A stretch of DNA of 64,000 nt from Minisyncoccota bacterium (GCA_035627655.1 DASPLI010000001.1:112991-176990), one strand, 5' to 3'. Shown: positions 26,942-42,130, counted from the first letter of the stretch. Program-made: numbers and translations. Notes: a model not told the origin generated them from the sequence alone.

Positions 26942-28378
26942 CTACGGAAGTCGCGGGAAGAGGTTTTCTGGCTTTCGGTTATCACGAACGGCAGCCTGTA
27001 TTGCCTCGGCAGTCGCCGGCAGTACGGGAGCGAGGTGTGCGGCAAGTTTTGCAAGGTGACGTACCAGCTTCTCAATGTCTGCAATCGCCTCCCCTTTCGT
27101 TTCCTCTTGCTTCACCTTCTTATATGGCTCCCGTTCCGTCATATAGGCGTCTCCCTGAGCTACATGCTCGAACACGAGATCAAGTGCCTGCTGGAACTCG
27201 AACGCCTGTAAACGGTCGGTGAACGCCGCTTCAAGTACAGTGTCTTGATCCGTAAGAGCAATCGGCGCAACAAGATGCTCCTCTGCAAGCTTCATGACGC
27301 GTGCGACAAGATTCCCCAGTCCATTGACGAGGTTTGCGGTGTACCACTCATCAAGTCGCTCCCAGGTGACATCTGAATCTTCGAACGGATGCACGTGGCG
27401 AAGCAGGAGGTAACGGGTTGCGTCCGTTCCGTACTTTGCCGTGAGCTCATACGGATTTATGACGTTTCCAAGCGACTTAGACATCTTCTGTCCACCGGAT
27501 GTGATGAAGCCGTGATAGAACACCTGGTCGCTATTTTTGATGCCTGCAGAAAAAAGCATTGCTTGCCACATGAGTGACTGAAAACGGACCTGATCCTTCC
27601 CCGCTACCTGCAGCGCCAGACCGTCGAGCCAGAACTTCTTGAAGTTCCCTTCTTCGTTTGGCCAGCCGAGCGTTGAGATGTAATTAGTGAGCGCATCAAA
27701 CCAGACATACATGACCTGAGTGTCGTCTCCCGGCACTGGCACACCCCACGAAAGGCGCGCTTTCTCGCGAGAGATGCTGAAATCTTCAAGACCACCCTTC
27801 ACAAAAGCAATCGCCTCTTCTCGACGCCAGTCCGGTACAACAACATTCGGACGAGCGAGATACTCTAGAAGCTTGTCCTGATATTTTGAGAAACGGAAAA
27901 AGTAGTTTTCTTCGGTAAGCGTCTGGAGCTCTTGGTTCGGATGCAGCAAGCAGCGTCCTGCATCGTCGAGATCCTTTTCCGTCTTATAGGATTCGCACCC
28001 GACGCAGTATTGGCCAGAATATGATTTTTTATAGATATCCCCCGCTGCATCACAGCGGCGCCACATCTCCTGCGCTGCGGCATAGTGTTCTGGATTCGTC
28101 GTACGGATAAAAGTGTCGTTGCTGAGAGCAAGCGCTTCTTTGAGCTTGCGGAACTCCGCGGCGTAGTGATCGGTATACGCTTTGACATCCTGTCCGGCTT
28201 TCTCCGACGCTTCAAAAATCTTCTGTCCATGCTCGTCAGTTCCCGTCGAGAAAAAGACTCTATCTCCCGTGAGTCGCCAGAAACGAGCAAGTGCATCTGC
28301 CTGAATAATCTCGAGTGCAAATCCGATGTGCGGATCTGCATTTACATACGGAAGCGTCGTCGTGATGTAGCGGTTCAT
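26942..28378 (-). CDS. metG: Methionyl-tRNA synthetase (short form, no C-terminal tRNA-binding domain)
   Basis: 478 aa. ...TTTLPYVNADPHIGFALE... (HIGH-region variant), ...GQKMSKSLGNVI... (KMSKS), MetRS anticodon-binding helices. Confidence 0.9.
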   Translation of the reverse strand: MNRYITTTLPYVNADPHIGFALEIIQADALARFWRLTGDRVFFSTGTDEHGQKIFEASEKAGQDVKAYTDHYAAEFRKLKEALALSNDTFIRTTNPEHYAAAQEMWRRCDAAGDIYKKSYSGQYCVGCESYKTEKDLDDAGRCLLHPNQELQTLTEENYFFRFSKYQDKLLEYLARPNVVVPDWRREEAIAFVKGGLEDFSISREKARLSWGVPVPGDDTQVMYVWFDALTNYISTLGWPNEEGNFKKFWLDGLALQVAGKDQVRFQSLMWQAMLFSAGIKNSDQVFYHGFITSGGQKMSKSLGNVINPYELTAKYGTDATRYLLLRHVHPFEDSDVTWERLDEWYTANLVNGLGNLVARVMKLAEEHLVAPIALTDQDTVLEAAFTDRLQAFEFQQALDLVFEHVAQGDAYMTEREPYKKVKQEETKGEAIADIEKLVRHLAKLAAHLAPVLPATAEAIQAAVRDNRKPENLFPRLP

Positions 28379-29409
28379 TCTGGCTGCGATACCTTCCCTT
28401 TCTGAAGATCAGACACGAATTCCTGGATACAGGCGGCGGCAGGAACAGCAAGCAGCACGCCAAGGAAACCTGCCAGCTGACCACCCGCAAGAAGCGCGAT
28501 GATGACGATAATAGGCGGCACGCCCACAATCTTTTTCACCACGAGCGGATAGATAAGGTGTGCCTGGAACTGGTTCACGATGAGATAGAGACCAGCAACT
28601 ACGACCGCAAGCGTCAGGTCTCCAGATATGAGTGCTACGAGAATGCCGGGAACGGCAGCGACAAGCGAGCCGAATACCGGAATCAACTCCATAACGCCCG
28701 CAAAGATAGCGAGCAGGAGCGCGTACTGGACGCCCAGGAGCGAAAGACCAAGGAAAAGGAGTACTGTGATGATCACCGAGAGCAGAATCTGTCCCTGCAT
28801 CCAGAGACCAATCTTCTTCTGAGAGCGCTTCCAGAGACCAAGAATGTAGTCGCGATGCTTCGCTGGAGTCACGAGGCGCAGGAAGTCGTCGATGCCTGTC
28901 TCCTGAAGGGAGAAGTAGATTGAGACAACCATCGTAAGAAGGAAGTAGACAGCGCCGCCGAAGATCGACGATACGAACTGGAGAACGCCGGCGCCGGTAT
29001 CGACGAAGGCATTCTGGAGCTGCACGATCGATTCGGTAAACGACGGACCAACAACAGTTCCCTCAAGAAACGGTAGCGAGGTGAGGTTGCTGACCTGGCT
29101 TGCGTACTGTGGAAGCACGGCCAGGACCGCAATCGCTTCTGCAAGCATGGGTGGGATAAAGAACCATACCAGCATCACCAGAAGGGCGATAATAAGCGCG
29201 TAGACAAGCACAACCGCAAGCGGACGGGGGAACTTACGTCTGAGGAAGAACTCGACGCCTGGCTCTACCGCTGACGCGATCACAATCGCCGAAAGAAGCA
29301 TGAGCACCAAGGTCGAGAGCTGCCAGAACGCCCAGGCGGCAGCCACGACAATAAGGACTTTTACCAGGGTTCCGAATGATACCGAGACGGAGAGGTGGCG
29401 GTATTCCAT
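28375..29409 (-). CDS. AI-2E family transporter (UPF0118/PerM/YhhT-like)
   Basis: 344 aa, 7-8 TM helices. ...GLWMQGQILLSVIITVLLFLGLSLLGVQYALLLAIFAGVMELIPVFGSLVAAVPGILVAL... is typical of PF01594. Confidence 0.75.
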   Translation of the reverse strand: MEYRHLSVSVSFGTLVKVLIVVAAAWAFWQLSTLVLMLLSAIVIASAVEPGVEFFLRRKFPRPLAVVLVYALIIALLVMLVWFFIPPMLAEAIAVLAVLPQYASQVSNLTSLPFLEGTVVGPSFTESIVQLQNAFVDTGAGVLQFVSSIFGGAVYFLLTMVVSIYFSLQETGIDDFLRLVTPAKHRDYILGLWKRSQKKIGLWMQGQILLSVIITVLLFLGLSLLGVQYALLLAIFAGVMELIPVFGSLVAAVPGILVALISGDLTLAVVVAGLYLIVNQFQAHLIYPLVVKKIVGVPPIIVIIALLAGGQLAGFLGVLLAVPAAACIQEFVSDLQKGKVSQPE

Positions 29410-29445
29410 GGGGCTGATACTAGCACAACCGCCGCAAAGCAGCTG

Positions 29446-29838
29446 CTATCCGATAACGACTTTGAAACCACCGTACGCCATGCGCTGCATCTCAAACGGC
29501 ATTGGCTGATTCGCCCACTTCGGGTCGTTCATGGCGGGATCTTTCATGACTTTCGCATTCACGCTATCCCGATGCGCTTTCGAACGGAATGTAATGTAGG
29601 AGAACCACACCGTCTCCCCCGCTTTTGCCTTGGCGAGCGCTGGAAACGCCTGCGGACGCATGTTCTTGGATCCCTTGGGACGCAGGTCGTCGCCCATGCA
29701 CTCTTTGTAATCAAGTGCTCCGTGCTTGAGCCAAAGCTTCTTTCCCACAGAAGCCATCTTGCGATAAGCATCGATATTCTTATTCGGCACAACAAACACA
29801 AATCCGTCTACGTACTTTGCAGCGTGTGGTTTTTTCAT
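29446..29838 (-). CDS. DUF1428-family protein
   Basis: Start at MKKPHAAKYVDGFVFVVPNKNIDAYRKMASVGKKLWLKHGALDYKECMGDD...TVWFSYITFRSKAHRDSVNAKVMKDPAM..., matching the DUF1428 (YdhG-like) pattern. Confidence 0.6.
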   Translation of the reverse strand: MKKPHAAKYVDGFVFVVPNKNIDAYRKMASVGKKLWLKHGALDYKECMGDDLRPKGSKNMRPQAFPALAKAKAGETVWFSYITFRSKAHRDSVNAKVMKDPAMNDPKWANQPMPFEMQRMAYGGFKVVIG

Positions 29839-29916
29839 GTCAGGAAGTATAGCAAATTTGACTTCTAAGCTCTCCACGATCATTATGCGCACCGGCATGA
29901 ACCTTGGGAGAACATC

Positions 29917-30285
29917 ATGCGTAGACTGCTGAGTGAAACGGAACTTCGCAGCTTCAACCTGAACGAAGACTATCGGTACCGCTATCAGGCGGAATCGTTC
30001 GTCGCGAGCGCCTGCATCATTCTCGATGCAAAATCAGCCAACTGGTTCAACGAGCTTGATCTGAATTACGTACGGACAGAAAGCCCGTATCGAGCTCTCG
30101 AGCACATCGAGAAGTTCTTCAAAGAAGAAACGCAACCACGTGATCTGACGGTCGAGATCGAGGAGGTGCTTGGCATCATTGAGTCTGCTGGTGCAGACGC
30201 CAAGCATTTGACCGCTGCCTGGATCGACGAGATTACGATGCGCCGAGCAAAGCGCTTCATGCGCAACCTGATGAACCTTTTCTAA
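29917..30285 (+). CDS. Hypothetical protein
   Basis: 122 aa. RBS GGGAGAA before the ATG, a TTGACT-17-CATTAT promoter-like element upstream, and a strong terminator downstream. Confidence 0.45.
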   Translation: MRRLLSETELRSFNLNEDYRYRYQAESFVASACIILDAKSANWFNELDLNYVRTESPYRALEHIEKFFKEETQPRDLTVEIEEVLGIIESAGADAKHLTAAWIDEITMRRAKRFMRNLMNLF

Positions 30286-30290
30286 TCGTG

Positions 30291-30326
30291 CAGACGGCCC
30301 GCTTCGTGCGGGCCGTCTTTCGTTTA
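30291..30326 (+). terminator. Intrinsic terminator
   Basis: AGACGGCCCGC-TTCGT-GCGGGCCGTCT followed by TTCGTTT. It overlaps the glyQS stop on the other strand. Confidence 0.6.
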
Positions 30327-31694
30327 TCCAAGCTTTGCAAGCAGCTCCCCAATTGGCACACGTTCCTGCGCTCCCGTATCGCGATCACGTACAGTAACAG
30401 TGTCGTCTTCAAGCGTATCGAAGTCGATGGTGATGCATGCGGGCGTACCAATCTCGTCCTGACGTCGGTAGCGCTTCCCAATGTTTCCATTGTCGTCAAA
30501 CTCAACCATCATTTCCTTGGCGAGCATCTTATAGACTTCGCGCGCTTTTGAGACAAGTTCTGGCTTGTTGCGCAGAAGCGGGAAGACTGCCGCCTTGATT
30601 GGCGCCAGCTGCTTGGGGAAGCGCAGAACAGTGCGCGTATCTTCGCCAAGCGTATCCTGGTCGTAAAACTCCGTCAGTACCGCAAGGAACGTACGGTCAA
30701 GACCTACGGAGGTCTCAACGATATGCGGTACGAACTTCTTCCCTTCTTCGTCCGTGTACGAGAGGTCAGTGCTAGAGAACTTCTGGTGCTGTGTCAGGTC
30801 GTAATCGCCGCGCGCATGAATACCCTCAAGTTCCTTAAAGCCAAACGGGAATCGGTACTCAATGTCCCATGCTGCCTTTGCATAGAAGACGAGATTCTCA
30901 TGCTCATGCCACTGGAGATTCTCCCGCTTGAATCCAAGGTCGAGGTAGTACTGGAAGCGCTTCTCTCGCCACTCTTCATAGATACGCATCTCATCTTCTG
31001 GACGGACGAACATCTGCATTTCCATTTGCTCAAATTCGCGCTTGCGGAAGATGTACTGTCGCGGCGCGATCTCGTTGCGAAACGCCTTACCGATCTGCGC
31101 GATACCGAATGGCACCTTAACGCGGACCGTATCGAGTACGTTCTTAAAGTTTATGTAAATGCCCTGGCAGGTTTCTCCGCGCAGATATGTCGGCTCCTGC
31201 GTCCAATCTTCAGAAAAGTTTCCGAGGTTCGACTGCACCAGGAGGTTAAAGCGCTTTACTGGCGTAAAATCTTTCTTGCCACAGTTCGGGCAAACGATTT
31301 CTTTTCGATGCGCGTCGAAGATCGTATTGATCTCCTCGATGCTCATCTTTTCGTCGGCAAATGCTCCCACTGCCTCAAGCAGATGATCAGCGCGCGAGCG
31401 CGTGTTGCAGGCACGACATTCAACCAGCGGATCGGAGAAGCCACCGACATGGCCAGACGCCTCCCACACCTTTGGATGCGTGAAGATTGCGGAGTCGAGT
31501 CCGACAATATTCTCCTCTTCTTGCACCATGGCCTTGCGCCAGGCACTCCGGATATTCTCCGCAAGCAATGCGCCATATGGGCCGAAGTCATAGGTGCCTG
31601 GGAATCCGCCGTAGATCTCGGATCCGGGGTATACAAATCCGCGTCGCTTGGCGAGCGAAACAATGTCTTCAAGTGTTGGCGTGGTTTTTTCCAT
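30324..31694 (-). CDS. glyQS: Glycyl-tRNA synthetase (alpha2 dimeric, class II)
   Basis: 456 aa. MEKTTPTLEDIVSLAKRRGFVYPGSEIYGGFPGTYDFGPYGALL... is the hallmark N-terminus of alpha2 GlyRS. The class II motifs are present. Confidence 0.85.
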   Translation of the reverse strand: MEKTTPTLEDIVSLAKRRGFVYPGSEIYGGFPGTYDFGPYGALLAENIRSAWRKAMVQEEENIVGLDSAIFTHPKVWEASGHVGGFSDPLVECRACNTRSRADHLLEAVGAFADEKMSIEEINTIFDAHRKEIVCPNCGKKDFTPVKRFNLLVQSNLGNFSEDWTQEPTYLRGETCQGIYINFKNVLDTVRVKVPFGIAQIGKAFRNEIAPRQYIFRKREFEQMEMQMFVRPEDEMRIYEEWREKRFQYYLDLGFKRENLQWHEHENLVFYAKAAWDIEYRFPFGFKELEGIHARGDYDLTQHQKFSSTDLSYTDEEGKKFVPHIVETSVGLDRTFLAVLTEFYDQDTLGEDTRTVLRFPKQLAPIKAAVFPLLRNKPELVSKAREVYKMLAKEMMVEFDDNGNIGKRYRRQDEIGTPACITIDFDTLEDDTVTVRDRDTGAQERVPIGELLAKLG

Positions 31695-31698
31695 GATG

Positions 31699-33582
31699 TT
31701 ACTTAACGGTTCCCTTCTCTATCGTATAGGACGGATCTGAGGTTGCCTGAATATTAATTTCACGCACGGTTTGTGATACCTGTTGCTGCACGAAACGGTC
31801 AAAGCCTGCAATAACCATATCCGAAGTAAGTTCCGGACTTGTACCTTTTTGCGTAGTGCTTGGCAAGAGTTCAACCTGGAAGGCGCCCTCCTTGGTTGTA
31901 GCAGCTGCCATTTCTCCTACCGACCAGGTCATCGTACGGGATGCTTCGTCAAAGGTAATTGCTCCGACGGGCGTCACCTGGCCGGTAAAGCGAACGTAGG
32001 GTGGCAGCGTAGCGGTAACGGTCGCATCGGCAACCGAGTTGACCGTATTCTTCGCCGTGAGCAGGACTGTGTATGTTGTTTTCTGCTCTGCGACTGGCGG
32101 CCACGGACCCGTATTGGTAAATGGTCCGGTTGAGTACATCGTACGAGCAGTCAGGGAGAGATCAGTTGCTACTTTAAGCGTACGGGTTAGCGTCGAGGTA
32201 ACGGTCTCCGGCACCTTATCAGCCCCAACGCGTGTTCCGGCGACGGATACGGAGAGCGTAATCACCGGCTGACGAAGCGACGCCATCGCTGAGCCACTCT
32301 TCGTGCCAAAGAGAAACGATCCGCTACCTGTTTCTCCCGGTGCGAGATTCGCGAGTCGTTCGTTGGTCGAAACATCAAAGACAACCGTGCGGTCGGAAGA
32401 ACGGTAAAAGCCGCCACTTGCTTTTACGCTTCCCGGATCGAATGCGTCTCCCGAGATAGCAACGGTGAGCCGAGCATTAGTTACCGGTGTCGAGAGTGTG
32501 TTCTGCCATGACAGAAGCGCTGAGGTCATTTCATTGCTCTGAATCACAACCGTGTCCGAAGTATTGCGATCAATACCGAGCGAAACCGCAAGAAACGCTT
32601 TCGTGATTGAAACTGCCGCTTCTTTCGTACTGTATGGAATGCCGAGGTCGTTTGAACCAGTGGCACGCAGTGTGCCGACGGAGAAATGGAATACCCGCTC
32701 CTCCCCTTCAAGACCGGTTAGCGGTCCTTCGATGGTAATTTGTTTCTCCTCTCCAGGGCGAAGCGTGCCAAGTACAAAGAGGTCACCGACCGGAACCAGC
32801 GATGTTCTCGTTGGCGAGAAGCCGAACGGATAGTCTGCGCGTACCGCTACGTTCTCAAGCGCGCTTAGAGCATTGGAACGCACCGTAACGGTCAGCTTGA
32901 GCGGTTGTCCTGCTGAAATTTCCGAGAGTGTATCGACAGAAAGCGTAACAGGCGCGGTCGCAATCACCAGGTCGTACGAACGTTTTGAGACAAAAGTAGC
33001 GTTCGACTTTTCCGTCTGGTACTCAACCGTAATAGGAATGGAAACCTTGCTATTCTCCTCTCCAAAGAAGGTTGCGCGTACAGTTTTTCGAACGCTCTCG
33101 CCTGCTGGGATAGTGCCGAGCTCTTCAACCACACTGGTAAGTTCTTCTGATCCATCAGCCGCAGCATACACGCCCTCAGGGAACGCGAGTTCGAGCGTTG
33201 CGTCCTGAATAGCGCTTGGATTCTCGTTGGTGACGGTAATGAGGAGCGACACGCTCTCCCCTCCCGATACCGTTGTTGGACCCTCGACGTTGATATCGAG
33301 GTGGTCGCTTGAAAGCGAACGGCCGCCAAGGAATAGGACGACTGCAGCAACAATGCCGGCAAGCACAAAAAAGCCAACGGCAAATATGAGAAACAGTGCC
33401 GGACCAGAGAAGCGCGGCGGGCGGCTTTCTGGAGCCGGTCCTTCCTCATGCTTCCATCCTTCCGGTTTTGCCGGAGCAAAGTTTTGGAGCGGCTCTGCCT
33501 TGATCCCGTCGACGGGCACCGGGTCGTACAACCGATCGCGCGCTCTTCCTAGCGGACTCTCGCCATTATCTCGTTCGGACAT
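31699..33582 (-). CDS. Hypothetical large membrane-anchored surface protein with repeated beta-sandwich-like (CARDB/DUF11-like) segments
   Basis: 627 aa. N-terminal cytoplasmic tail plus one TM helix (ALFLIFAVGFFVLAGIVAAVVLFLGG), then ~520 aa of T/S/V-rich repeats. No enzyme motifs. Confidence 0.5.
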   Translation of the reverse strand: MSERDNGESPLGRARDRLYDPVPVDGIKAEPLQNFAPAKPEGWKHEEGPAPESRPPRFSGPALFLIFAVGFFVLAGIVAAVVLFLGGRSLSSDHLDINVEGPTTVSGGESVSLLITVTNENPSAIQDATLELAFPEGVYAAADGSEELTSVVEELGTIPAGESVRKTVRATFFGEENSKVSIPITVEYQTEKSNATFVSKRSYDLVIATAPVTLSVDTLSEISAGQPLKLTVTVRSNALSALENVAVRADYPFGFSPTRTSLVPVGDLFVLGTLRPGEEKQITIEGPLTGLEGEERVFHFSVGTLRATGSNDLGIPYSTKEAAVSITKAFLAVSLGIDRNTSDTVVIQSNEMTSALLSWQNTLSTPVTNARLTVAISGDAFDPGSVKASGGFYRSSDRTVVFDVSTNERLANLAPGETGSGSFLFGTKSGSAMASLRQPVITLSVSVAGTRVGADKVPETVTSTLTRTLKVATDLSLTARTMYSTGPFTNTGPWPPVAEQKTTYTVLLTAKNTVNSVADATVTATLPPYVRFTGQVTPVGAITFDEASRTMTWSVGEMAAATTKEGAFQVELLPSTTQKGTSPELTSDMVIAGFDRFVQQQVSQTVREINIQATSDPSYTIEKGTVK

Positions 33583-33605
33583 TACGAGACAGTATACCGT
33601 GCCTA

Positions 33606-34166
33606 TCAGAGACCCGAAGCAGAGAGGCCTCGATTTATTTTTCGAATGTAGTCGCTGCGTTCCTGAGTAATCTTCTCTAGAAGCTCCCCTGCGTAGCCAG
33701 TTTCTGGGAGCGCTGTGTCTGCCAAACCAAGGAAGGTTAGAAGACGGAGTGCAACGAGCGTTTCAGCGGCATCGGCCTGTGCCTCACTGAGTGTCGGCAG
33801 TACTTCAAGAAATTCTGCAAAAAGTGTGAACGGTATTGGATCGTTAGCTTCGCCGTGTATGAGACGAAGCATCAGGCTCGCAATTCGTCCGGCTCGCTTA
33901 CGACCGTCGGGAGATAGATCACGAAAGCGGTTATGAACAAGATTGGCACCTGAGAGTCGCCATCCGTCCTTGCCGCGCACCAAGATAACGTCACACTCGG
34001 CAAACGTCTGGACCGCTCCGGCAAGCTTCGCCCCGGGCTTTCGGATTCCCTGCGCACGGGCGCGAATCAAACCGAATTCTTCGGTAAGCATCGAGAGCGA
34101 AGCGCTCGCTTCTGCAAGTGGCGTGCGGGCAAGCACAATCCCTCGCGTACCGTATCTAGGACGCAT
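33606..34166 (-). CDS. recO: DNA repair protein RecO (short form)
   Basis: 186 aa. ...RGIVLARTPLAEASASLSMLTEEFGLIRARAQGIRKPGAKLAGAVQTFAECDVILVRGKDGWRLSGANLV matches the RecO N-terminal OB domain pattern. It overlaps the ileS 3' end by 11 nt. Confidence 0.6.
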   Translation of the reverse strand: MRPRYGTRGIVLARTPLAEASASLSMLTEEFGLIRARAQGIRKPGAKLAGAVQTFAECDVILVRGKDGWRLSGANLVHNRFRDLSPDGRKRAGRIASLMLRLIHGEANDPIPFTLFAEFLEVLPTLSEAQADAAETLVALRLLTFLGLADTALPETGYAGELLEKITQERSDYIRKINRGLSASGL

Positions 34167-37100
34167 CTCGCTTCAGGTCGAACTGCAGCGCGCCAGTCGA
34201 GAGCTGGACGCTGTACGGTCCTTCCCCGCGAACAACCGTTACTGTGTCTTTCGGAGATAGGCCGAGAGTCTTTCGCGCATCAGCAACTGCGCGCGCCAGC
34301 TCGCGCTCATCTCCTTCCTGGATGAGTGCGGGTGTGAGATTGGTATCAAGCTGCATCTCAGCCGCCTGCTGGCGAACCTCTTTGACGTTCACCTCATCCT
34401 TGAGAATCGCGACGAGCTCCTCGGGAAGCGTTCCTGAGATGGAAAGCGTGGCAAGCGGCTGGCGCACTTTAATATTCGCCTTTTGTCGGAGCATGAGCGC
34501 CTCTGAAGCTATGGTGCGCGTACGTGCCATATCTTTAAGAAGTTGTGCATTCGGATTGCCGAACCAGCGGCGTGGCGCCTTTGGCCAGTCGCTGAGGTGT
34601 ACGCTTTCTGGATCGTGCTCCGTTCGCACGCTTCGGTACAACTCTTCGGCGACAAACGGGAGAACTGGCGCAGTGATCTTGGAGAACTCCATAAGAACGT
34701 GGCGAAGCGTCCGGAGCGCTGCCTGCTTGTCCTGTTCATCAGTACCCTTCATACGGTCGCGCGAGCGGCGCAGGTACCACGTGGATAGGTCTTCAATGAA
34801 ATCTCGGAACGGGCGGACGCCGCGAGGAATGTCATAGCGATCAAACGCATCTGTTACCGTTTGGAGTGTTTCTTCCAGGCGCGCAAGAATCCAACGATCG
34901 AGCGGATGCGCACTCTTCCCTGTCTTCTGCTCATCAAGATCACCAGCGTAGAGGAGATAGAATGACAGTACGTTTCGAAGCATGTTGACGATACGTGCAT
35001 GCGCGTCTTTGACATCATCGTCACGGAATTGCAGATCTTCCGCTTGCATTACGGGACTTGCAAGCAGGTAGTAGCGGAATGCGTCGGCGCCATATTGATC
35101 GAAGAGCGCGTACGGGTCGGTGTAGTTACCCTTACTCTTCGAAAGCTTGGCGCCATCTTTGGCAAGCACGGTTCCAGTCGTAACTACATGGCGGAACGGC
35201 GCACGGCCGAACAGTTCAACGGAGATCGCGTGCATGTAGTAGAACCAGGCGCGCGTCTGTCCGATATATTCCGATACGAAATCTCCTGGAGAGCGCTTTT
35301 CAAATACGCCGCGGTTTTCAAACGGATAGTGATATTCGGCAAACGGCATTGAGCCGGACTCTACCCAGCAGTCCACCACTTCCGGCGTACGTGTAAGTGG
35401 CTTGCCGTCTTTCTCAAGCGTTACACGATCAAGATACGGCAAATGCAGATCAAGGTCATAGTCGCGATTGTGCGGCAGCGGCACGAAGTCGAGCTGCTTT
35501 GCTGTTCCGCGATCAAGATACGTAATCGATTCGATCATCTCGCGCGGTTTACCGCTTGCGACAAAGAACAGCATCCAGATCGGGTCGCCATGGGAAACAA
35601 TCAGAATGCGTTTGCCCTGATGCTTTTCTTCAAGCTCGTAGAGAAATTCAGCGACGCGTCGGCGCACCTGTTCATAGGACTCGCCACCTTCCGGACCATG
35701 CAGAAAACGTTTTGGAACATCACGCTCGTACGCTCGGTACTCCTCGTATTTTTTTCCCTCGAACACGCCGACTTCGATCTCTCGCAACCGGAGGTCGGTA
35801 ACGATCGCATCGGGCGAAATACCAAGCAGGCCGGCCGCAATGCGCGCTGTCTCAAGCGTCCGCGTAAACGGCGAAGAAACGATGAGGTCAATGCCATCTG
35901 CCTTCAATTGCTCAACGGTTGCCACAACGTCCTGCTTCCCTTTATCAGTGAGGGTATGACCGGTTTCCGCGCCGCCTAGCACCGTGCTGTTGATGCCCGG
36001 AACATTATTTACTGCTTCTCCGTGGCGCAAGACGATATACGTATTGCCAGAAGTTTTCGTGAGTGACTTGAGCTCCTCCACCGAACCTACGACGGTAACG
36101 TTTCCTTCCGGATCCTTCCAGATTGGGAGCGGACTTGCCCAGAACCGGTTTCGAGAAATGGTCCAATCCGGCGCACTTTCAATAATCTTGCGGAAGCGCC
36201 CTTCCTTGAGGTGGTCAGGTGCCCAAGAGATATTTTTGTTCTCCGCGAGCATTTGGTCTTTCACCGCCTGGATGTTGATGAACCACGATGAAACTGCGTT
36301 ATAGATGAGTGGTGTGCCGCAGCGATAGCAGTGCGGATACGAGTGCGTATGCATCCCGCGCGCAAACATAAGCCCGCGCGCCTCCAGATCTTCCTTGATA
36401 GGCGCTTCCGCTTTTTTCAGGTACTGGCCGCGAACGAATTCTGGCGCATCATCATTGAACGTACCGTTTGGCTGCAAAAGCGGAACCATTGGAAGTCCTT
36501 CTTTCTGGCCAAGCGCGTAATCGTCTTCGCCGTAAATGACGGCGGTATGCACAATGCCGGTTCCGTCATCAGTCGTAACAAAGTCTGCAGGAAGCACCAT
36601 CCACTTCTTCCCTTCCGATGCGGCAACCTTTGCAATAGCGTAGAGCGGCTCATAGGAAATTCCCGCCAACTCTTTTCCCGTAAGCGTGCGGGTCGGTGCT
36701 GCAAGTCCGAGAGATTCCGCGCGAGTGGTAGCGGCAACGTAGTGCACGTCATCTTGCTTGTAGATGCCGTATGTAATGTCTGGACCGACCGCTAACCCAA
36801 CGTTTCCGGGAAGCGTCCACGGCGTCGTAGTCCATGCGAGCAAATAGGTGTTCGAGGGTAGCCCATGCGTTTCTGGATCACACACCTTGAACTTCACGGT
36901 CACAGCTTCTTCCGTGATGTCCTTATAGGTGTTGTCCATGGCGATCTCCGCCTTAGCAAGCGGCGTTTCGCAATGAGTGCAGTACATCAGCACCTTTCTT
37001 CCCTCATAGAGACGTCCTTTTTTGTGGATTTCTTTAAGGCCCCACCACACGCTTTCCATGAAGGTTGGATCCATGGTCTTGTAGGAATTGTCGAAGTCGA

Positions 37101-37518
37101 CAAAGCGGCCGAGGCGGTCGATGTAGCGCTTCCAGTCATGTACGTACTCAAGCACCATCGAGCGCGCCGTCTCATTGAACGTCTCGATGCCGATAGAAAG
37201 AATTTCTTTCTTATTCTTGAGCCCAAGCTTCTTCTCAACCAAGGATTCGATCGGCAGACCATGCGTATCCCACCCCCAGCGGCGGCGCACGCGATATCCG
37301 CGCATCGTTTTGTAGCGCGGCACCATGTCCTTTGCCGTTGAAGAAAGGAGTGACCCTTGGTGTGGTAAGCCGGTTGCAAACGGTGGGCCGTCGTAAAAGG
37401 TGTACTCCCCATTCGGAGCGGGCTTTTCAAGCGTCTTCTCGAAAATCTTCTGCTCTTTCCAAAATACCAAAACAGCTTCTTCGCGCTGTGCGGTTTCCGA
37501 CTTACCCTCAACTGCCAT
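34156..37518 (-). CDS. ileS: Isoleucyl-tRNA synthetase (type 2, eukaryote-like) with a ~195-aa histidine-phosphatase (PGAM-family) domain inserted in the catalytic core
   Basis: 1120-aa single ORF. HIGH region PFATGLPHQGSLL; CP1 editing motif WTTTPWTLPGNVGLAV; WTISRNRFWASPLPIW; KMSKS variant KLSKS; CWVESGSMPFAEYHYPFENRG. Between ...GSVEELKSLTKTSGN and DLDLHLPYLDRVTL lies TYIVLRHGEAVNN...SSPFTRTLETA...LREIEVGVFEGK...GPEGGESYEQVRRRV...KRILIVSHGDPIWML, containing the RHGE and SHG catalytic signatures of His_Phos_1. Insert is nt ~35455-36042. Confidence 0.9.
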   Translation of the reverse strand: MAVEGKSETAQREEAVLVFWKEQKIFEKTLEKPAPNGEYTFYDGPPFATGLPHQGSLLSSTAKDMVPRYKTMRGYRVRRRWGWDTHGLPIESLVEKKLGLKNKKEILSIGIETFNETARSMVLEYVHDWKRYIDRLGRFVDFDNSYKTMDPTFMESVWWGLKEIHKKGRLYEGRKVLMYCTHCETPLAKAEIAMDNTYKDITEEAVTVKFKVCDPETHGLPSNTYLLAWTTTPWTLPGNVGLAVGPDITYGIYKQDDVHYVAATTRAESLGLAAPTRTLTGKELAGISYEPLYAIAKVAASEGKKWMVLPADFVTTDDGTGIVHTAVIYGEDDYALGQKEGLPMVPLLQPNGTFNDDAPEFVRGQYLKKAEAPIKEDLEARGLMFARGMHTHSYPHCYRCGTPLIYNAVSSWFINIQAVKDQMLAENKNISWAPDHLKEGRFRKIIESAPDWTISRNRFWASPLPIWKDPEGNVTVVGSVEELKSLTKTSGNTYIVLRHGEAVNNVPGINSTVLGGAETGHTLTDKGKQDVVATVEQLKADGIDLIVSSPFTRTLETARIAAGLLGISPDAIVTDLRLREIEVGVFEGKKYEEYRAYERDVPKRFLHGPEGGESYEQVRRRVAEFLYELEEKHQGKRILIVSHGDPIWMLFFVASGKPREMIESITYLDRGTAKQLDFVPLPHNRDYDLDLHLPYLDRVTLEKDGKPLTRTPEVVDCWVESGSMPFAEYHYPFENRGVFEKRSPGDFVSEYIGQTRAWFYYMHAISVELFGRAPFRHVVTTGTVLAKDGAKLSKSKGNYTDPYALFDQYGADAFRYYLLASPVMQAEDLQFRDDDVKDAHARIVNMLRNVLSFYLLYAGDLDEQKTGKSAHPLDRWILARLEETLQTVTDAFDRYDIPRGVRPFRDFIEDLSTWYLRRSRDRMKGTDEQDKQAALRTLRHVLMEFSKITAPVLPFVAEELYRSVRTEHDPESVHLSDWPKAPRRWFGNPNAQLLKDMARTRTIASEALMLRQKANIKVRQPLATLSISGTLPEELVAILKDEVNVKEVRQQAAEMQLDTNLTPALIQEGDERELARAVADARKTLGLSPKDTVTVVRGEGPYSVQLSTGALQFDLKRDAS

Positions 37519-37540
37519 AATTCCCTTATCCTAGGCGGTT

Positions 37541-37580
37541 TGTGGATAAAAAGAAAGACCGGCGCGCTCGCGCCGGTCTT
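37541..37580 (-). terminator. Intrinsic terminator/attenuator ending ~22 nt upstream of the ileS start codon
   Basis: Perfect 12-bp hairpin AAGACCGGCGCG-CTC-GCGCCGGTCTT, followed on the minus strand by TCTTTTTATCC, then AAGGGAATT-ATG (ileS). Confidence 0.6.
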
Positions 37581-37807
37581 GGCCTTCATTACCGTTTCTT
37601 GCGAAGGCAATTGGTCGGGAGGATGTGCTGTGGCGCCATATCCTTTGTTGCGCGCGCCGCGAGAACTTTCGCTTCGTGCGCTTGAGACATAGGCGCGTAT
37701 CGGTCGCGGTTGTGAAGCGGTACCGATTCTTGCTGCATGGATTCTCTCCCTAATCTAAGCTCCCGAAAGAGCTATGGAGGCGTAGCGTAGCATATGAGCC
37801 TCATGCC

Positions 37808-37848
37808 GCAAGAGTAAAAGAACGGCCGACGTGTATTACGTCGGCCGT
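37808..37848 (-). terminator. Intrinsic terminator (end of an argS-downstream transcript; upstream boundary of the ileS leader)
   Basis: CGGCCGACG-TGTATTA-CGTCGGCCG hairpin, followed on the minus strand by TTCTTTTACTCTT. Confidence 0.5.
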
Positions 37849-38057
37849 GTGATCACGCCTGTTTCCGATTTCCAGACTTCGCCTGAACGCTGGGCTGCTG
37901 ACGTTCCTCCCGCCGCTTCAATTGCGAGCGTAGAAACATAAGTCGCACCGCGCCGGAGATACTGCGTGGCCTCATCTGAGCAAGGTCACGCGATGACAAA
38001 TCTTGAAAAGCAGAGACAGACGGATGGTGAGGGTTACCTTTCATGTTCTTCCCCCGT

Positions 38058-38089
38058 TTTGAAAAAACAATCGCGCGATTGCGCGACCA
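38058..38089 (-). terminator. Intrinsic terminator after argS
   Basis: TCGCGC-AATC-GCGCGA hairpin (palindromic CAATCGCGCGATTG), followed on the minus strand by TTGTTTTTTC. Confidence 0.5.
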
Positions 38090-38125
38090 AGGCACCATAC
38101 CACAGCCGTTTTCAGGACCGCAACC

Positions 38126-39787
38126 CTACATCTTCTTCGGGGTGGGGATGGCAAGGAGGCGCAGTCCGTTTGCCATAGTTGCAGCAAACGCTTCCGCAAT
38201 CAGAAGCTTGTACGCTTCGTGTTCTCCTCCAATGATTCGTTCTTGCGCGTAAAATGAATTCCATTCGCTGGCAAGAAGAGTTAGGTACTGAGCGACGTGG
38301 TGCGGTGCGCGTTCCCGCTCTGCGCGCGCGGCAACTTCTGGAAAACGAGTAATCAACCGCTCAAGCGTGTAAGGTTCGCTTGGCACATCCTGCACGCTGC
38401 CGCCCTTCCCTGCCTGCGCAAGCACCGAGCGTGCGCGCACAAGCGCGTACTGCAAATACGGTCCGGATTCTCCTTCAAGCGACAGTGATTTTTCTGGATC
38501 GAAGATCACGTTGGAGCCAGCTGCCTGCCGAAGAATCATGTACTTAATGGCGCCCACAGCCACTTCAGCAGCAATCATTGGATCGTCGTTCTTTTCTTTC
38601 GCCTGCTCAATGACGCCGGCAAGGAGTCCGCTTGCGGTAATGGTATTCCCGAGTCGAGAAGACATCTTTCCAGTCGTGAGCGTGAGGAGGCCATGCGAAA
38701 TATGCGACGTCTTTGCCGCAAGCGTAGGCGCAATCTCGGAAAGAGCGGCAAGGAATACTTTGAAATGTCCGATCTGCTCACTCCCGGTTTCAATAATGAC
38801 CTCATCGCTTTCAAAGCGCTGCTCCTTATAAAACGCAAGTCCAAGGTCCTTTGCTTCATAGGTCGGCGTGCCGCGGGACGTTATGAAAACCAACGTATGG
38901 AGTCCCTTCTCTTCCCCCGGATAGATAATGGCACCATCGCTTTCCCGGAAGATGCCTTTCTGCAATCCGTCGTTCACTATCTCAATACCAATCGGCGTGA
39001 CTTCGCTTTCAAAGAAATAGTAATCGAATTTCGTATCCAGAAGTCCGTAGATTTCGCGGAACGCCTCAAGACACACCTCTCGACACTTGCGCCAGAGATC
39101 CATCAATGCCTGATCCTCGCCTTTGTAGATTTCCTGGTTGAGTGCATCAATTTCGACTTTGGCCGTCTCACTCTCTTCATACGCGCGCGAACCATGCGCA
39201 TACGCCTTATCTACCTCCGCCGCATTCGCAACGTCAGTGACATTATCTTTGCGAAGCGCCCAGAGTGCTTTTGCCACATGCGGACCCACGTCCCCGCCAT
39301 ATGAGTCGCGAATAACAGCCGCGCCCGCATTTTCCGTCAGGCGCGCAACCGACTCACCGATGATCGTGCTCATCAGGTGACCAATATGCATTTCTTTAAA
39401 TGGATTCGGGCACGAATATTCAATGGCAACGCGCTTCCCTTCTTTTGCGCTTCCCACGCCCCAGTCTTCGTCTCGCGCAACAACCAAGGTTTTTGTGATC
39501 TCTTCGCGCGGAAGCGTCATATTGATGAATCCCGGTCCTGCTACCGCAATCTCCCACCCAAGCGAGTCTCGCAAAGAGGCAGCGAGCTCTTCCGCTAGTT
39601 CTTTTGGATTGCGTGCGAGCTGTTTTGCAGCAGCAAGTGCAGCGTTCGTTGCAAAGTCTCCGTGAGAGAGCTCAGCGGGCCACTCTACCGCAAAGGAAAC
39701 GTCAGACGCGCCAGCACCTGCGAGCGCCTCTTCGACGGCCTTCCGGATAGTTGCTTCCATAGAGTCTGAGTGTAGCAAATGACGCAC
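38126..39787 (-). CDS. argS: Arginyl-tRNA synthetase
   Basis: 553 aa. HIGH region ...PNPFKEMHIGHLMSTIIGES..., the Add-1 N-terminal domain, the DALR anticodon-binding region, and a C-terminal Met as in ArgRS. Confidence 0.9.
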   Translation of the reverse strand: MRHLLHSDSMEATIRKAVEEALAGAGASDVSFAVEWPAELSHGDFATNAALAAAKQLARNPKELAEELAASLRDSLGWEIAVAGPGFINMTLPREEITKTLVVARDEDWGVGSAKEGKRVAIEYSCPNPFKEMHIGHLMSTIIGESVARLTENAGAAVIRDSYGGDVGPHVAKALWALRKDNVTDVANAAEVDKAYAHGSRAYEESETAKVEIDALNQEIYKGEDQALMDLWRKCREVCLEAFREIYGLLDTKFDYYFFESEVTPIGIEIVNDGLQKGIFRESDGAIIYPGEEKGLHTLVFITSRGTPTYEAKDLGLAFYKEQRFESDEVIIETGSEQIGHFKVFLAALSEIAPTLAAKTSHISHGLLTLTTGKMSSRLGNTITASGLLAGVIEQAKEKNDDPMIAAEVAVGAIKYMILRQAAGSNVIFDPEKSLSLEGESGPYLQYALVRARSVLAQAGKGGSVQDVPSEPYTLERLITRFPEVAARAERERAPHHVAQYLTLLASEWNSFYAQERIIGGEHEAYKLLIAEAFAATMANGLRLLAIPTPKKM

Positions 39788-41080
39788 TTAGGCGAATGAT
39801 TCCGGAACCGGATGCGCAAGCGCAAGTGTACGCACCTCTTCCCGCATGGAAGCCGGATCTTTAGTACGCAATGCCTCAACAATGAGCTCCGCCACCCGGG
39901 CACTCTCCTTCTCTTTAAAGCCGCGCGTCGTAATCGCCGGCGTGCCAAGTCGAATACCCGATGGATCAAATGCCTTCCGCTCGTCGTTAGGAATCGTATT
40001 TTTATTCAGCGTAATGCCTGCTGCATCGAGCAACGTCTCGGCCTCGCCGCCAGAAAGTCCAAGCGAGCTCTGCACATCAAGAAGCAAGAGATGGTTATCA
40101 GTACCGCCGGCAATCATGCGAATGCCACTTGCGCGGAAAACGTCTTCCATCGCCTTTGCGTTCTTCACGACTTGCGCAGCATAGTCTTTAAAGGAAGGAT
40201 CAAGCGCTTCTTTAAAGCACACTGCCTTCGCTGCGATTTGATGCATATGCGGACCGCCCTGAAGGCCTGGAAAAACGGAGCGATCAATCAACGTCGGCAG
40301 GTTTTCGATCGTCTTCTCCGGCGCCTTAAGGGGGCTTGAGACAATTCCCTTCGAAAGGATCATGCCGCCGCGCGGACCTCGGAGCGTCTTGTGCGTGGTG
40401 GTCGTCATGATATGGAATCCATGTTCAAGCGGATTTTCTGCCACGCCGCCGGCAATAAGGCCTGCTGTGTGTGCAACATCCGCCATCGCCACCGCACCAA
40501 CCTCGCGCGCAATGTCCGCAATCTTCTTCCAATCTAGTTCACGCGGATACGCGGAAAAACCCGCGAGTATAAGCTTTGGCTTCTCCTGCTGTGCGAGCGC
40601 CCGCAGCGCTTCATAATCGATCGCTCCCGTATCAACATCGCTCATGCCATAGCGGACGAAGCGGAAGAGTTTTGCCATGTAGGTTACCGGAGCACCATGA
40701 GTCAGGTGTCCGCCGTGCGAGAGATCCATACCAAGAACCGTGTCCCCCGGCTCAAGCCAGGAAAAGTACGCTGCGATATTCGCTGCCGCTCCACCAAGCG
40801 GCTGGACGTTTGCATGGTCGGCGCCAAACAATTCCTTGGCGCGTGAAATCGCGAACGTTTCAACCTGATCGGTGTACTCCTGGCCGCCGTAGTAACGCTT
40901 CCCCGGGTATCCTTCCGAGTACTTGTTCGTCATCACACTCCCCATCGCCTCGCGGACTGCACGCGAGACGTAGTTTTCAGACGGGATAAGCTCAAGACCC
41001 TCGCGTTCGCGCGTCTCCTCCCCCATAAGAGTCTCGTATACGTCCGGGTCTTCTCCCTTCAGGTGAGCATAGGGGTCCAT
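39788..41080 (-). CDS. glyA: Serine hydroxymethyltransferase
   Basis: Start at MDPYAHLKGEDPDVYETLMGEETREREGLELIPSENYVSRAVREAMGSVMTNKYSEGYPGKRYYGG... The PLP lysine region ...TTTTHKTLRGPRGGMI... is present. The ORF-track's 170-aa upstream extension (to 41557) has no homology and overlaps the divergent gene, so it is rejected. Confidence 0.9.
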   Translation of the reverse strand: MDPYAHLKGEDPDVYETLMGEETREREGLELIPSENYVSRAVREAMGSVMTNKYSEGYPGKRYYGGQEYTDQVETFAISRAKELFGADHANVQPLGGAAANIAAYFSWLEPGDTVLGMDLSHGGHLTHGAPVTYMAKLFRFVRYGMSDVDTGAIDYEALRALAQQEKPKLILAGFSAYPRELDWKKIADIAREVGAVAMADVAHTAGLIAGGVAENPLEHGFHIMTTTTHKTLRGPRGGMILSKGIVSSPLKAPEKTIENLPTLIDRSVFPGLQGGPHMHQIAAKAVCFKEALDPSFKDYAAQVVKNAKAMEDVFRASGIRMIAGGTDNHLLLLDVQSSLGLSGGEAETLLDAAGITLNKNTIPNDERKAFDPSGIRLGTPAITTRGFKEKESARVAELIVEALRTKDPASMREEVRTLALAHPVPESFA

Positions 41081-41125
41081 AGTGTGCTCATCATACTCAT
41101 CAAACCTATAGAAAGAAAAGGTTAT

Positions 41126-42130
41126 ATGCTGGAATCTATGCACGAACCCCTGAAGCCCGTACGGAAGATTGGACCCCTCTTCGTATCTGAACGCTTCAAA
41201 GACATGAAGGATCCCTGCATCTGTTTTGATGGCACCACGTGGCACATCTTCGGTTCCGGCGGAGACACCCGTCCGGAAGTGTGGCAAATCCTTCATGCAA
41301 CCGCGCCGCATATAGAAGGACCGTGGACTGAAGTGGAACCGGCAAAACTGCGCGGAGCAGACGGTCCGCATGTTGCGGCCCCTTCGGTCGTGTTTGATCC
41401 AGAGGATCGCCTCTTTCATATGGCGGTGCAAAAAGATTTCATGTCTATCGGCGGCGACATCACGTACCTTGCGTCTGCAGACGGACATACGTTTACGAAA
41501 ATGCGCACTCTGGTGCGCCCGCGCGGCTCTTCCGAAGCGGGACTCTATGATCCGCAACTCTCGCTCATACGCGGCAAAAAATATCTAGTCTACTCCGGAA
41601 TACCGAAGCGACTCGTGGAAGACGTGCCGATCATTCCGCAGCCGGACGTGTATCTAGCACGCAGCATTACCGATCAGTGGTCAGGTCCGTGGAAACGGAT
41701 CGGAAAGATTCTCGACCACGAAGATATTGCGTGGCACCACAACCGTCGCGAGTTTCCGGATTACGAATGGGGTATCGAAGGTCCGCAGATCGTTGAGCTT
41801 CCCGGCGGACGTATGCTCTTAAACGCAACCTGCTTTATGGAAGAAGGTCCGCGCGGAACGCGGCAGCGCGTATTCTTCGCAGTAGCTGATAACGTCGACG
41901 GGCCGTACCAAAGCCTCGGTCCGGTGCTCACAGATCGAAGCGAGGAATGGGAGAGCGGTGAGAACGGACACGCGAGCGCGTGGGTTGAAGGAGACGAGCT
42001 CTATCTCTTCTATCAGGCGCGCTCCATTACCAACCCTATTCCGGTTGAAAACCGGTGGTACTACGGCATTGCCGTATACCGCGTCAAAGACATTCTTGAG
42101 AAAGCAGAGGCGCCTATTGTCGCCGCTTGA
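41126..42130 (+). CDS. Hypothetical protein, possibly a five-bladed beta-propeller glycoside-hydrolase-like fold (GH43/GH32-like)
   Basis: Start at MLESMHEPLKP (ATG 41126). ...FKDMKDPCICFDGTTWHIFGSGG... and repeated W/G/D-containing segments suggest a beta-propeller. Function uncertain. Confidence 0.4.
   Translation: MLESMHEPLKPVRKIGPLFVSERFKDMKDPCICFDGTTWHIFGSGGDTRPEVWQILHATAPHIEGPWTEVEPAKLRGADGPHVAAPSVVFDPEDRLFHMAVQKDFMSIGGDITYLASADGHTFTKMRTLVRPRGSSEAGLYDPQLSLIRGKKYLVYSGIPKRLVEDVPIIPQPDVYLARSITDQWSGPWKRIGKILDHEDIAWHHNRREFPDYEWGIEGPQIVELPGGRMLLNATCFMEEGPRGTRQRVFFAVADNVDGPYQSLGPVLTDRSEEWESGENGHASAWVEGDELYLFYQARSITNPIPVENRWYYGIAVYRVKDILEKAEAPIVAA

Follow-up and report, generated by a model that had tools for sequence, protein, structure and literature searches.

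The question raised by a 64,000-nucleotide stretch of DNA from a Minisyncoccota bacterium (GCA_035627655.1 DASPLI010000001.1:112991-176990; hereafter 'the window', with positions counted from its first nucleotide) is whether isoleucyl-tRNA synthetase (IleRS) can house a second enzyme within its own fold, and what such an arrangement might accomplish. Few enzymes are as conserved as the aminoacyl-tRNA synthetases, and the domains that have been added to them are classically eukaryotic and mostly non-catalytic. An initial annotation, made from the sequence alone, had proposed that the ileS gene of this window carries an in-frame histidine phosphatase domain encoded at positions 35455-36042. Our analysis bears this out, and reveals a second enzyme that is complete, retains an intact active site, is nested within a bacterial synthetase and is under selection as strong as that acting on its host.

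A complete histidine phosphatase within IleRS

The ileS gene (34156-37518, stop codon included; this and all other features of ileS given below lie on the minus strand) is an uninterrupted reading frame of 1120 codons, such that residue i of the protein begins at window position 37518-3(i-1). The segment at 35455-36042 corresponds in frame to residues 493-688 and reads TYIVLRHGEAVN ... DFVPLPHNRDYD. The Pfam model His_Phos_1 (PF00300) matches residues 495-666 with an E value of 2.7e-34 (119 bits, compared with a cutoff of 21.7), and this match splits that of the Pfam model tRNA-synt_1 in two. A structural model of residues 489-692, computed with AlphaFold2 (AF2) from the aligned sequences of insert segments and of standalone relatives, is a complete alpha/beta domain with the entire histidine phosphatase fold, and is predicted with high scores (predicted local distance difference test (pLDDT) 95.8; predicted template-modelling score (pTM) 0.92).

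When this model was compared with the PDB by using Foldseek, the top match was PhoE (YhfR) from Geobacillus stearothermophilus (1H2E; 30% identity, template-modelling score 0.77, E=8e-16), followed by the mycobacterial glucosyl-3-phosphoglycerate phosphatase GpgP (Rv2419c), the phosphoserine phosphatase PspA of Hydrogenobacter and a riboflavin-pathway phosphatase. A total of 295 fold matches have E values of 1e-3 or lower, and the best 50 of these 295 all belong to the histidine phosphatase family. The nearest solved folds are all small-molecule phosphatases of ~200 amino acids, and the cofactor-dependent phosphoglycerate mutases (dPGMs), which have ~250 amino acids, rank below PhoE, GpgP and PspA with poorer root-mean-square deviations. 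The insert is a complete branch-1 histidine phosphatase for which the PhoE type is nearest.

The assignment to branch 1 made in the initial annotation was therefore correct, but its further description of the domain as phosphoglycerate mutase- or CobC-like was too specific. Scores fall below the NCBIfam equivalog cutoffs for CobC (71 versus 163 bits), PspA (65 versus 350), GpmB (60 versus 261) and SixA (19 versus 74.5), as they do for the PhoE-like model PRK13463. The same is true of the dPGM models dPGM_arch (79.6 versus 225 bits, E=2.6e-22) and pgm_1 (17.7 versus 81.7 bits). Because every curated cutoff is missed, membership among the phosphoglycerate mutases, CobC, PspA or SixA was rejected, and the insert is best viewed as a superfamily member that belongs to no characterised subfamily. 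Standalone relatives of ~190 amino acids exist that share ~45% identity with the insert, although the genomic contexts of the nearest of these (P0146 and P0182) were uninformative. A six-frame search of the window with hidden Markov models found no second His_Phos domain.

The initial annotation had also held that this architecture is not an artefact of gene fusion. Hundreds of orthologues share the same architecture and the identical IleRS protein is found on three independent contigs, one of which is 742 kb in length, and thus an assembly chimera can be discounted.

Conservation of the active site

PhoE (1H2E/1EBB) is similar in size to the insert (~200 amino acids) and can be aligned with it at each catalytic position, as the signatures recognized initially had led one to expect. 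Conservation was assessed among 120 relatives that share 62-72% identity with the window IleRS. The Arg and His residues of the RHG motif (R498, the nucleophile H499 and G500; 36019-36027) are invariant in all 120 and correspond to R9 and H10 of PhoE. The second phosphate-binding Arg (R553, within SSPFTRTLETA; 35860-35862) is likewise invariant and aligns with R59, whereas the catalytic acid (E580, within RLRE; 35779-35781), which aligns with E83, is Glu in 115 relatives and Asp in five. The second catalytic His (H643, followed by G644 within IVSHG; 35587-35592) is present in every relative and aligns with the His of 'VTHG' in PhoE, and R621 is also invariant.

Considering all copies embedded in IleRS proteins, the catalytic pentad reads RHREH in 280 and RHRDH in 13, which together account for 293 of ~299 copies (~98%). 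Nearly all the IleRS copies that lack the full pentad are fragments cut by contig ends. A few copies that reside in valyl-tRNA synthetase (ValRS; see below) are degenerate, with pentads of VHREH, RHRES or AHRG-.

No other part of the protein varies as much as the insert, whose mean majority-residue fraction is 0.53 versus 0.80-0.88 for the two Rossmann halves. Its surface positions vary freely whereas its active-site residues are invariant. For seven close genome pairs, the ratio of nonsynonymous to synonymous substitution rates (dN/dS) is 0.026-0.145 for the insert versus 0.027-0.085 for the synthetase core. Purifying selection as strong as that on IleRS preserves the entire domain and especially its chemistry. 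Judging from these patterns of residue conservation, the nested phosphatase is very probably catalytically active.

The synthetase that hosts the insert

Outside the insert, the window protein is a type-2 IleRS from end to end, as initially recognized. Matches to the enzyme of Thermus thermophilus (1ILE), to IleRS2 of Priestia megaterium (8C8V) and to yeast and Candida cytoplasmic IleRS range from E=1e-199 to 1e-178 (2.5e-199 and 6e-197 for the first two), whereas those to the type-1 enzymes of S. aureus and to IleRS1 reach only ~1e-96 to 1e-99. The closest solved relatives are 1ILE, 8C8V, 7D5C and 6LDK. The ileS equivalog model TIGR00392 gives 811.9 bits (cutoff 621.4) in two stretches that flank the insert. 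The order of the Rossmann fold, connective peptide (CP) core, CP1 editing domain, CP2, CP3, KMSKS loop and anticodon-binding domain is that of other type-2 enzymes. Residues 1-492 (36043-37518) include the first Rossmann half, the CP core, the CP1 editing domain, CP2 and the first half of CP3, with tRNA-synt_1 matching residues 16-489 and the segment aligning with 1ILE residues 11-479. Residues 689-1120 (34159-35454) provide the second half of CP3, the second Rossmann half, the KMSKS-type loop, and the anticodon-binding and C-terminal domains; this portion aligns with 1ILE residues 488-790, and Anticodon_1 matches at residues 874-1023 (E=7.6e-29).

The synthetase motifs initially quoted are all present, in the order given. 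The Thr-rich motif WTTTPWT of the CP1 editing domain (residues 229-235; 36814-36834) does not vary among the 120 relatives, implying retention of editing, and H324 and D333 of CP1 are also invariant among relatives. WTISRNRFW (residues 452-460) and CWVESGSMPF (717-726) are both conserved, and the KMSKS-type loop reads KLSKS (791-795; 35134-35148). The HIGH signature had been described imprecisely, however, because this position (residues 53-56; 37351-37362) reads HQGS rather than H-x-G-H. The fourth-position His is normally regarded as catalytic, yet it is systematically replaced in this clade, with H-x-G-S/T occurring in ~100 of the 120 close relatives. The same replacement is found in IleRS proteins of Saccharibacteria and Micavibrio that have no insert. 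A link between H-x-G-S and the insert was considered and rejected, since the two are not correlated across relatives; its presence in the Saccharibacteria enzymes indicates that it is a lineage trait independent of the insert, and a conserved variant rather than a sign of decay. With its TIGR00392 score and its conserved editing motif, KLSKS loop and anticodon-binding domain, the window protein very probably retains IleRS activity.

Two insert-bearing IleRS proteins from Parcubacteria (L052 and L053) read GIHH and ALHH at the HIGH position, which resembles the altered G-x-H-H signature reported for the IleRS2 enzymes of mupirocin hyper-resistance.

The insert resides in a peripheral loop

Alignment with 1ILE pairs residue 486 of the window protein with residue 479 and residue 689 with residue 488, and therefore ~8 residues of the Thermus enzyme are replaced by ~200. 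This agrees with the insertion point given in the initial annotation, and relatives that carry no insert have 10-20 residues at this location. CP3 of the Candida enzyme spans residues 473-534, and the topology of CP3 differs among the Thermus, Candida and S. aureus enzymes, with zinc bound only by that of Thermus (PMC7191050). Residue 487 of the window protein aligns with Candida residue 499, which is within CP3. The insertion point in 1ILE is preceded by CQAC and followed by ACAC, whose cysteines we take to be the CP3 zinc ligands. On this alignment, the insert occupies the tip loop that joins one Cys pair to the other in the peripheral Thermus-type CP3 zinc knuckle.

The earlier placement of the insert in the catalytic core, close to the KMSKS loop and the aminoacylation active site, is thus not upheld, and ~100 core residues separate this peripheral loop from the KLSKS sequence that follows. 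From general Rossmann-fold topology, CP3 would feed into the CWVESG strand at its N-terminal end, the sheet edge that should be distal to the adenylate pocket.

The clade that includes the window protein has lost all four CP3 cysteines (residues ~467-478 and ~697-712; window positions ~36085-36120 and 35395-35440), and in this respect, as in its HQGS signature and enlarged loop, it differs from Thermus IleRS. The CxxC...CxC cysteines are present in the Thermus enzyme, in the insert-less loci L063-L065 and in the insert-bearing proteins P0234 and P0235. In P0234, P0235 and P0219, the phosphatase sits between intact CxxC...CxC pairs. There is therefore no strict coupling between losing the knuckle and carrying the insert.

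At its C-terminal end, the insert returns the chain to CP3 through a clade-specific junction, FVPLPHNRDYDLDLH (residues 678-692; 35443-35487), which is a feature that free-standing PhoE lacks. F678 is invariant, and conservation is complete or no lower than 90% at P680, P682, H683, N684, Y687, E688, L689 and D690, such that the FVPLPHN..YELD junction ranks with the best-conserved stretches of the region. In a model of the full-length protein (pLDDT 87.5, pTM 0.78), both junction blocks have pLDDT values of 91-96.

Distribution and loss among Paceibacteria

The initial annotation implied that this IleRS might be unique. On the contrary, PF00300 is found in all 120 of the best database matches to the window protein, and ~60 IleRS proteins from Paceibacteria/Parcubacteria (one genome per species), including Kaiserbacteria, Adlerbacteria and Campbellbacteria, carry the insert at the same site with 43-77% core identity to the window protein. 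The search of other Patescibacteria that had been suggested at the outset thus shows that nearly all Paceibacteria IleRS proteins carry this module, which is both old within the clade and of value to it. More distant IleRS proteins from Saccharibacteria, one Peregrinibacteria representative, Micavibrio, Chlamydiales and a Promethearchaeote have no insert.

Six Paceibacteria loci (L062, L063, L064, L065, L067 and L068) also have no insert. Among these, L062 (Paceibacterota isolate SO_2016_GW1_95; 68% core identity) is nested among insert-bearing IleRS proteins that lack the CP3 cysteines, and retains the vestige LPKNARGELDL where its relatives read LPHNRDYELDL. This position in the tree and the retained junction together indicate a clean secondary deletion, although the neighbour-joining tree and nearest-neighbour analysis are only indicative for counting insertions and losses. 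L062 lacks both the zinc knuckle and the insert, whereas L063, L064 and L065 have kept the knuckle. No standalone His_Phos gene was found within 3 kb of ileS in the insert-less genomes, as might have been seen had gene fission occurred. Such clean losses argue that the phosphatase is probably dispensable for charging.

A shorter form of the domain occurs in five Adlerbacteria-like species (L033, L036, L037, L038 and L066), in which ~35 residues between the catalytic Glu and the sequence GGES are gone while RHG, R, E and H are retained. The missing region is presumably the cap over the active site of PhoE-type enzymes.

Recurrent insertion into IleRS and ValRS

An exhaustive HMMER search conducted with the insert only yielded 11,242 relatives at E<=1e-3, and the best 150 representatives were inspected. 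These comprise 111 IleRS proteins and two ValRS proteins, with the remainder being short standalone proteins or fragments, and no fusion partner other than IleRS or ValRS was encountered among them. Junction sequences reveal at least five insertion positions. For IleRS, site A is the CP3 loop, site A' immediately follows the second Cys pair, site B follows CWFESGSMPYA..HYPF.N, and site C is where the anticodon-binding domain begins. The ValRS copies follow SPQWF, RIPVWY or DTWFSSGLW.FSTLGWP.

A single protein can carry between one and four of these domains. Those that occur together are only 27-36% identical to one another, which rules out recent tandem duplication as their origin. For example, a 1161-amino-acid ValRS fragment from an ENA metagenome (P0171) has one domain after SPQWF and three in tandem after RIPVWY, with 32-36% mutual identity. 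One IleRS copy at site B is nearest to ValRS copies at site B (42%). Among Magasanikbacteria-like ValRS proteins the distribution is patchy, with ~35 of 120 relatives having the domain and being interleaved with domain-less proteins at 65-88% identity. Judging from these alignments, the same domain appears to have been inserted repeatedly into IleRS and ValRS across Patescibacteria, and such repeated capture is hard to dismiss as accident.

Other domains have entered the same sites. PF00300 is present in ~100 of the 120 closest relatives of the protein P0175, which include IleRS proteins from Gracilibacteria, Peregrinibacteria and Peribacteria, and many of these relatives add GNAT, P-loop kinase (AAA_33, AAA_18 or Zeta-toxin-like), serine (alpha/beta-) hydrolase, DUF559 or Y1-transposase-like domains. 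The most elaborate are mosaic IleRS proteins of the Gracilibacteria/Peregrinibacteria type (P0473, P0479, P0458, P0447, P0396 and P0234; 1066-1790 amino acids), which hold as many as four foreign domains, all nested in frame. In these proteins, CP1 contains DUF559 or Y1 (IS200-like), CP3 contains His_Phos, a GNAT or serine hydrolase domain follows CWFESG, and a P-loop kinase sits where the anticodon-binding domain begins. The nested kinase of P0473 has Pnkp1 (4XRP) as its best solved match (E=8e-4) and seryl-tRNA(Sec) kinase (PSTK) as its best NCBIfam match (E=1e-9), both far under family cutoffs, and that of P0479 resembles small-molecule kinases. A 1504-amino-acid IleRS (P0457) has no histidine phosphatase and instead carries a phosphoglycolate-phosphatase-like HAD domain at site B (residues 566-759, after CWFESG), which may represent a non-homologous replacement of the phosphatase function.

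Possible functions of the nested phosphatase

The initial annotation had suggested nucleotide hydrolysis, tRNA-end dephosphorylation or regulation as candidate roles. Our favoured reading, to which we assign a probability of roughly 0.5, is that the window ileS gene encodes a working type-2 IleRS that carries an autonomous PhoE-like phosphatase in its CP3 surface loop, making a bifunctional protein in which the phosphatase acts on a small phosphoester substrate and the synthetase provides a scaffold. In such a protein, the chain would exit CP3 after the GSVEELKSL strand, build the whole ~190-residue alpha/beta phosphatase fold, and re-enter CP3 at the 'DLH.PY.D' segment by way of the conserved linker. 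Following the standard mechanism of the superfamily, H499 would attack a phosphomonoester gripped by R498, R553 and H643, E580 would protonate the leaving group, and the resulting phospho-histidine would then be hydrolysed. The phosphatase would be an accessory module that is not needed for aminoacylation, and the class Ia synthetase would serve mainly as an abundant, constitutively expressed and insertion-tolerant scaffold. If this is true, streamlined genomes use essential synthetases to carry accessory enzymes.

That the substrate is a small molecule, and not tRNA or protein, is a tentative preference that we hold at slightly less than even odds. We lean in this direction because the nearest structures are metabolite phosphatases, because the insert is acidic (net charge -6) and thus unlike an RNA-binding surface, because standalone cousins exist, and because neither the gene neighbourhood nor a search with PADLOC points to conflict systems. 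In addition, the many insertion sites and many diverged copies argue against any coupling that depends on a precise geometry.

Several observations weigh against this scaffold proposal. Mere hitch-hiking would not predict what appears to be repeated independent capture by just two paralogous synthetases. The HAD domain of P0457, at a site where relatives carry His_Phos or GNAT, suggests that selection in IleRS favours a phosphatase activity as such. The cap-less short form would have a more open active site, as is found in the protein phosphatase SixA. Finally, the kinase co-nested in P0473 has the aforementioned weak resemblance to kinases that act on RNA or tRNA.

Apart from the SixA comparison, these points also speak for our main alternative, translation-linked repair, which we consider possible but less likely. 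Under this explanation, the phosphatase would act on the tRNA of its own synthetase by removing a 3'- or 2'-phosphate or a pyrophosphate from the CCA end, where such blocks might be left by nucleases or by tRNA-pyrophosphorylating toxins. In a wider form, the phosphatase together with the co-nested kinase, acetyltransferase and hydrolase would make up a kit for tRNA-end healing and aminoacyl-tRNA quality control. Kinase and phosphatase in combination follow the end-healing logic of polynucleotide kinase-phosphatase (PNKP), and small alarmone hydrolases reverse CCA pyrophosphorylation. The exclusive use of IleRS and ValRS as hosts among the best 150 representatives is in keeping with such a role, as are the opened active site of the cap-less variants and the fact that an activity on RNA ends or aminoacyl esters can be rationalized for each of the P-loop kinase, GNAT, serine hydrolase and HAD domains. 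Set against this are the acidic charge of the insert, the sub-threshold scores of the kinase similarities, the small-molecule-like character of the P0479 kinase, and the likeness of the nested HAD domain to phosphoglycolate phosphatase rather than to PNKP. We also know of no branch-1 histidine phosphatase that acts on RNA ends. Pfam detects neither a kinase nor a GNAT or hydrolase domain in the window protein, and a PNKP-type end-healing enzyme was rejected for it on the basis of the missing kinase. Moreover, the ArgRS, GlyRS and MetRS proteins of the window carry no such domain, and no RNA-repair gene is nearby. The most ambitious version of this proposal, in which Patescibacteria IleRS and ValRS are platforms for a modular and repeatedly reinvented tRNA 3'-end/aminoacyl-tRNA repair or counter-toxin kit, with the window phosphatase clearing phosphate or pyrophosphate from the CCA end before charging, is doubtful.

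A regulatory role is improbable. The domain could reverse an inhibitory phosphorylation of the synthetase by HipA-like or Ser/Thr kinases, or could sense a phosphorylated metabolite, for example via phospho-H499, and so tune charging to the energy state of the cell. The superfamily does include the protein phosphatases SixA, PGAM5 and Sts-1 as well as enzymes primed by metabolite phosphodonors, the cap-less variants approach a minimal SixA-type architecture, and P-loop kinases are co-nested in some relatives. The short and confidently modelled junctions also make conformational coupling conceivable. However, multiple sites with one to four diverged copies are difficult to reconcile with precise allosteric or cis geometry, the domain has been lost cleanly with no obvious compensation, there is no kinase in the neighbourhood, and metabolite phosphatases are again the nearest structures. 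If charging and phosphatase action are coupled in any of these ways, the result would be an unrecognised tie between tRNA charging and phosphate chemistry, be it tRNA-end repair, toxin reversal or metabolic sensing, in minimal genomes.

We regard as very improbable the idea that the domain is a structural pseudo-enzyme that replaces the lost CP3 zinc knuckle for stability or tRNA positioning, with catalysis being irrelevant. The loss of all four flanking cysteines in the window clade is what would be expected of such a replacement, and the few degenerate ValRS copies are compatible with it, but the near-universal pentad in IleRS copies and the invariance of the active site within a variable surface are not. 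Furthermore, insert and intact knuckle coexist in three proteins (P0234, P0235 and P0219), and L062 manages with neither.

There is similarly little to be said for a moonlighting glycolytic enzyme, wherein the domain would be the dPGM of the cell fused to a housekeeping gene. Superfamily and catalytic residues are shared with dPGMs, and there is the weak match to the short archaeal dPGM model noted above. Nevertheless, this match and that to pgm_1 fail their curated cutoffs, the domain (~190 amino acids) is without the dPGM-specific extensions of proteins with ~230-250 amino acids, and dPGMs fare worse in the fold search. Diverged multiple copies, patchy occurrence in ValRS and clean losses are likewise a poor fit to a single essential glycolytic step.

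The chance that the insert is an artefact or selfish element (an assembly chimera, two genes joined by a frameshift, an intein-like segment or a mobile insertion) is negligible: although the in-frame Y1-transposase-like and DUF559 endonuclease-like segments in CP1 of related IleRS proteins leave room for element-driven insertion to have contributed historically, the continuous frame, the three contigs and the orthologues from independent samples exclude an assembly or frameshift error, and an intein or mobile element is excluded by the lack of any Hint/intein Pfam match, by junctions without splice residues (the insert starts with T-Y-I, and its 'HN' precedes R and not C, S or T), by flanking DNA repeats that amount only to short chance matches, by unremarkable GC content over the insert (0.52-0.55), and by dN/dS values as low as those of the host gene.

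Relationship to known proteins

Among curated families, the best NCBIfam match of the insert (E=1.8e-25) is to the C-terminal half of the actinobacterial bifunctional RNase HI/acid phosphatase (CobC-like; PRK07238). This family, of the M. tuberculosis Rv2228c type, is a precedent for fusing a branch-1 phosphatase to a nucleic-acid enzyme, although it is an end-to-end fusion with a different partner, and the insert is not a member (90 bits versus a cutoff of 326). The model NF040702 ('ileS_w_GNAT') is a curated precedent for a catalytic domain in or on IleRS, and GNAT-bearing proteins, often with His_Phos as well, occur among the relatives described here; nonetheless the guest is different, and the window protein has no GNAT domain and scores 335 bits compared with a cutoff of 1999.

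The established insertion modules of class Ia synthetases (CP1 editing, CP2/CP3 and the leucine-specific domain of LeuRS) are likewise whole modules placed in surface loops of the Rossmann fold. However, such modules function in tRNA handling or editing, and none is an enzyme of an unrelated superfamily that brought along an active site of its own. T4 PNKP and bacterial Pnkp1 resemble some of the related IleRS proteins in pairing a P-loop kinase with a phosphatase, but their phosphatases are of the HAD or calcineurin type rather than histidine phosphatases, the window protein carries no kinase, and the match to Pnkp1 noted above is marginal.

A full-text literature search found no published description of a synthetase with a histidine phosphatase domain, which agrees with the initial impression of novelty, albeit not with the implied uniqueness given the spread throughout Paceibacteria, the additional sites, the ValRS hosts and the clean losses. 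Both enzymes are known, but their nested architecture, its recurrence and the companion domains appear to be undescribed. Automatic names assigned by JGI do reflect the combination, as in 'valyl-tRNA synthetase/broad specificity phosphatase PhoE' and 'isoleucyl-tRNA synthetase/phosphohistidine phosphatase SixA/...GNAT'. NCBI gives many of the proteins (P0001, P0004, P0009, P0408, P0477 and others) no more specific name than 'class I tRNA ligase family protein', or even labels them 'GNAT family N-acetyltransferase'. The automatic functional naming of an essential gene is thus degraded by the domains nested in it.

Genomic neighbourhood and the region upstream of ileS

The gene order around ileS is that of a plain housekeeping region: serine hydroxymethyltransferase (SHMT), ArgRS, IleRS, RecO, a 627-amino-acid protein, GlyRS and MetRS. 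Four synthetase genes (ArgRS, IleRS, GlyRS and MetRS) are located within ~13 kb, together with genes for SHMT, RecO, TatD, SSB and S18 (26942-41557), and only IleRS among the four carries a foreign domain. No ValRS gene is present in the window, and the neighbourhood holds no kinase, toxin or RNA-repair gene. PADLOC returned no defence-system match, and a role as a component of a known defence system was rejected on this basis.

The gap between the argS stop codon and the ileS start codon (37519-38125) is 607 nucleotides, which is unusually long for a streamlined genome. No riboswitch or T-box was detected in this gap by an Rfam search at E<=0.1. On the coding strand, the gap contains three strong terminator-like hairpins (38089-38068, 37848-37822 and 37580-37555) compared with 1.0 expected. 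In the portion nearest to ileS (37519-37580), a GC-rich hairpin is followed by TTTC(C/T)TTTT, a spacer of ~10 nucleotides and a 'AAACGCTAGGATAAGGAAA'-like motif located immediately before the start codon. This arrangement of hairpin, T-rich tract and AAACGCTAGGATAAGGAAA-like motif is kept in the last 120 nucleotides upstream of ileS in eight related loci (L009, L010, L012, L014, L016, L020, L061 and L062), and could be a terminator followed by a promoter or ribosome-binding site, or an attenuator.

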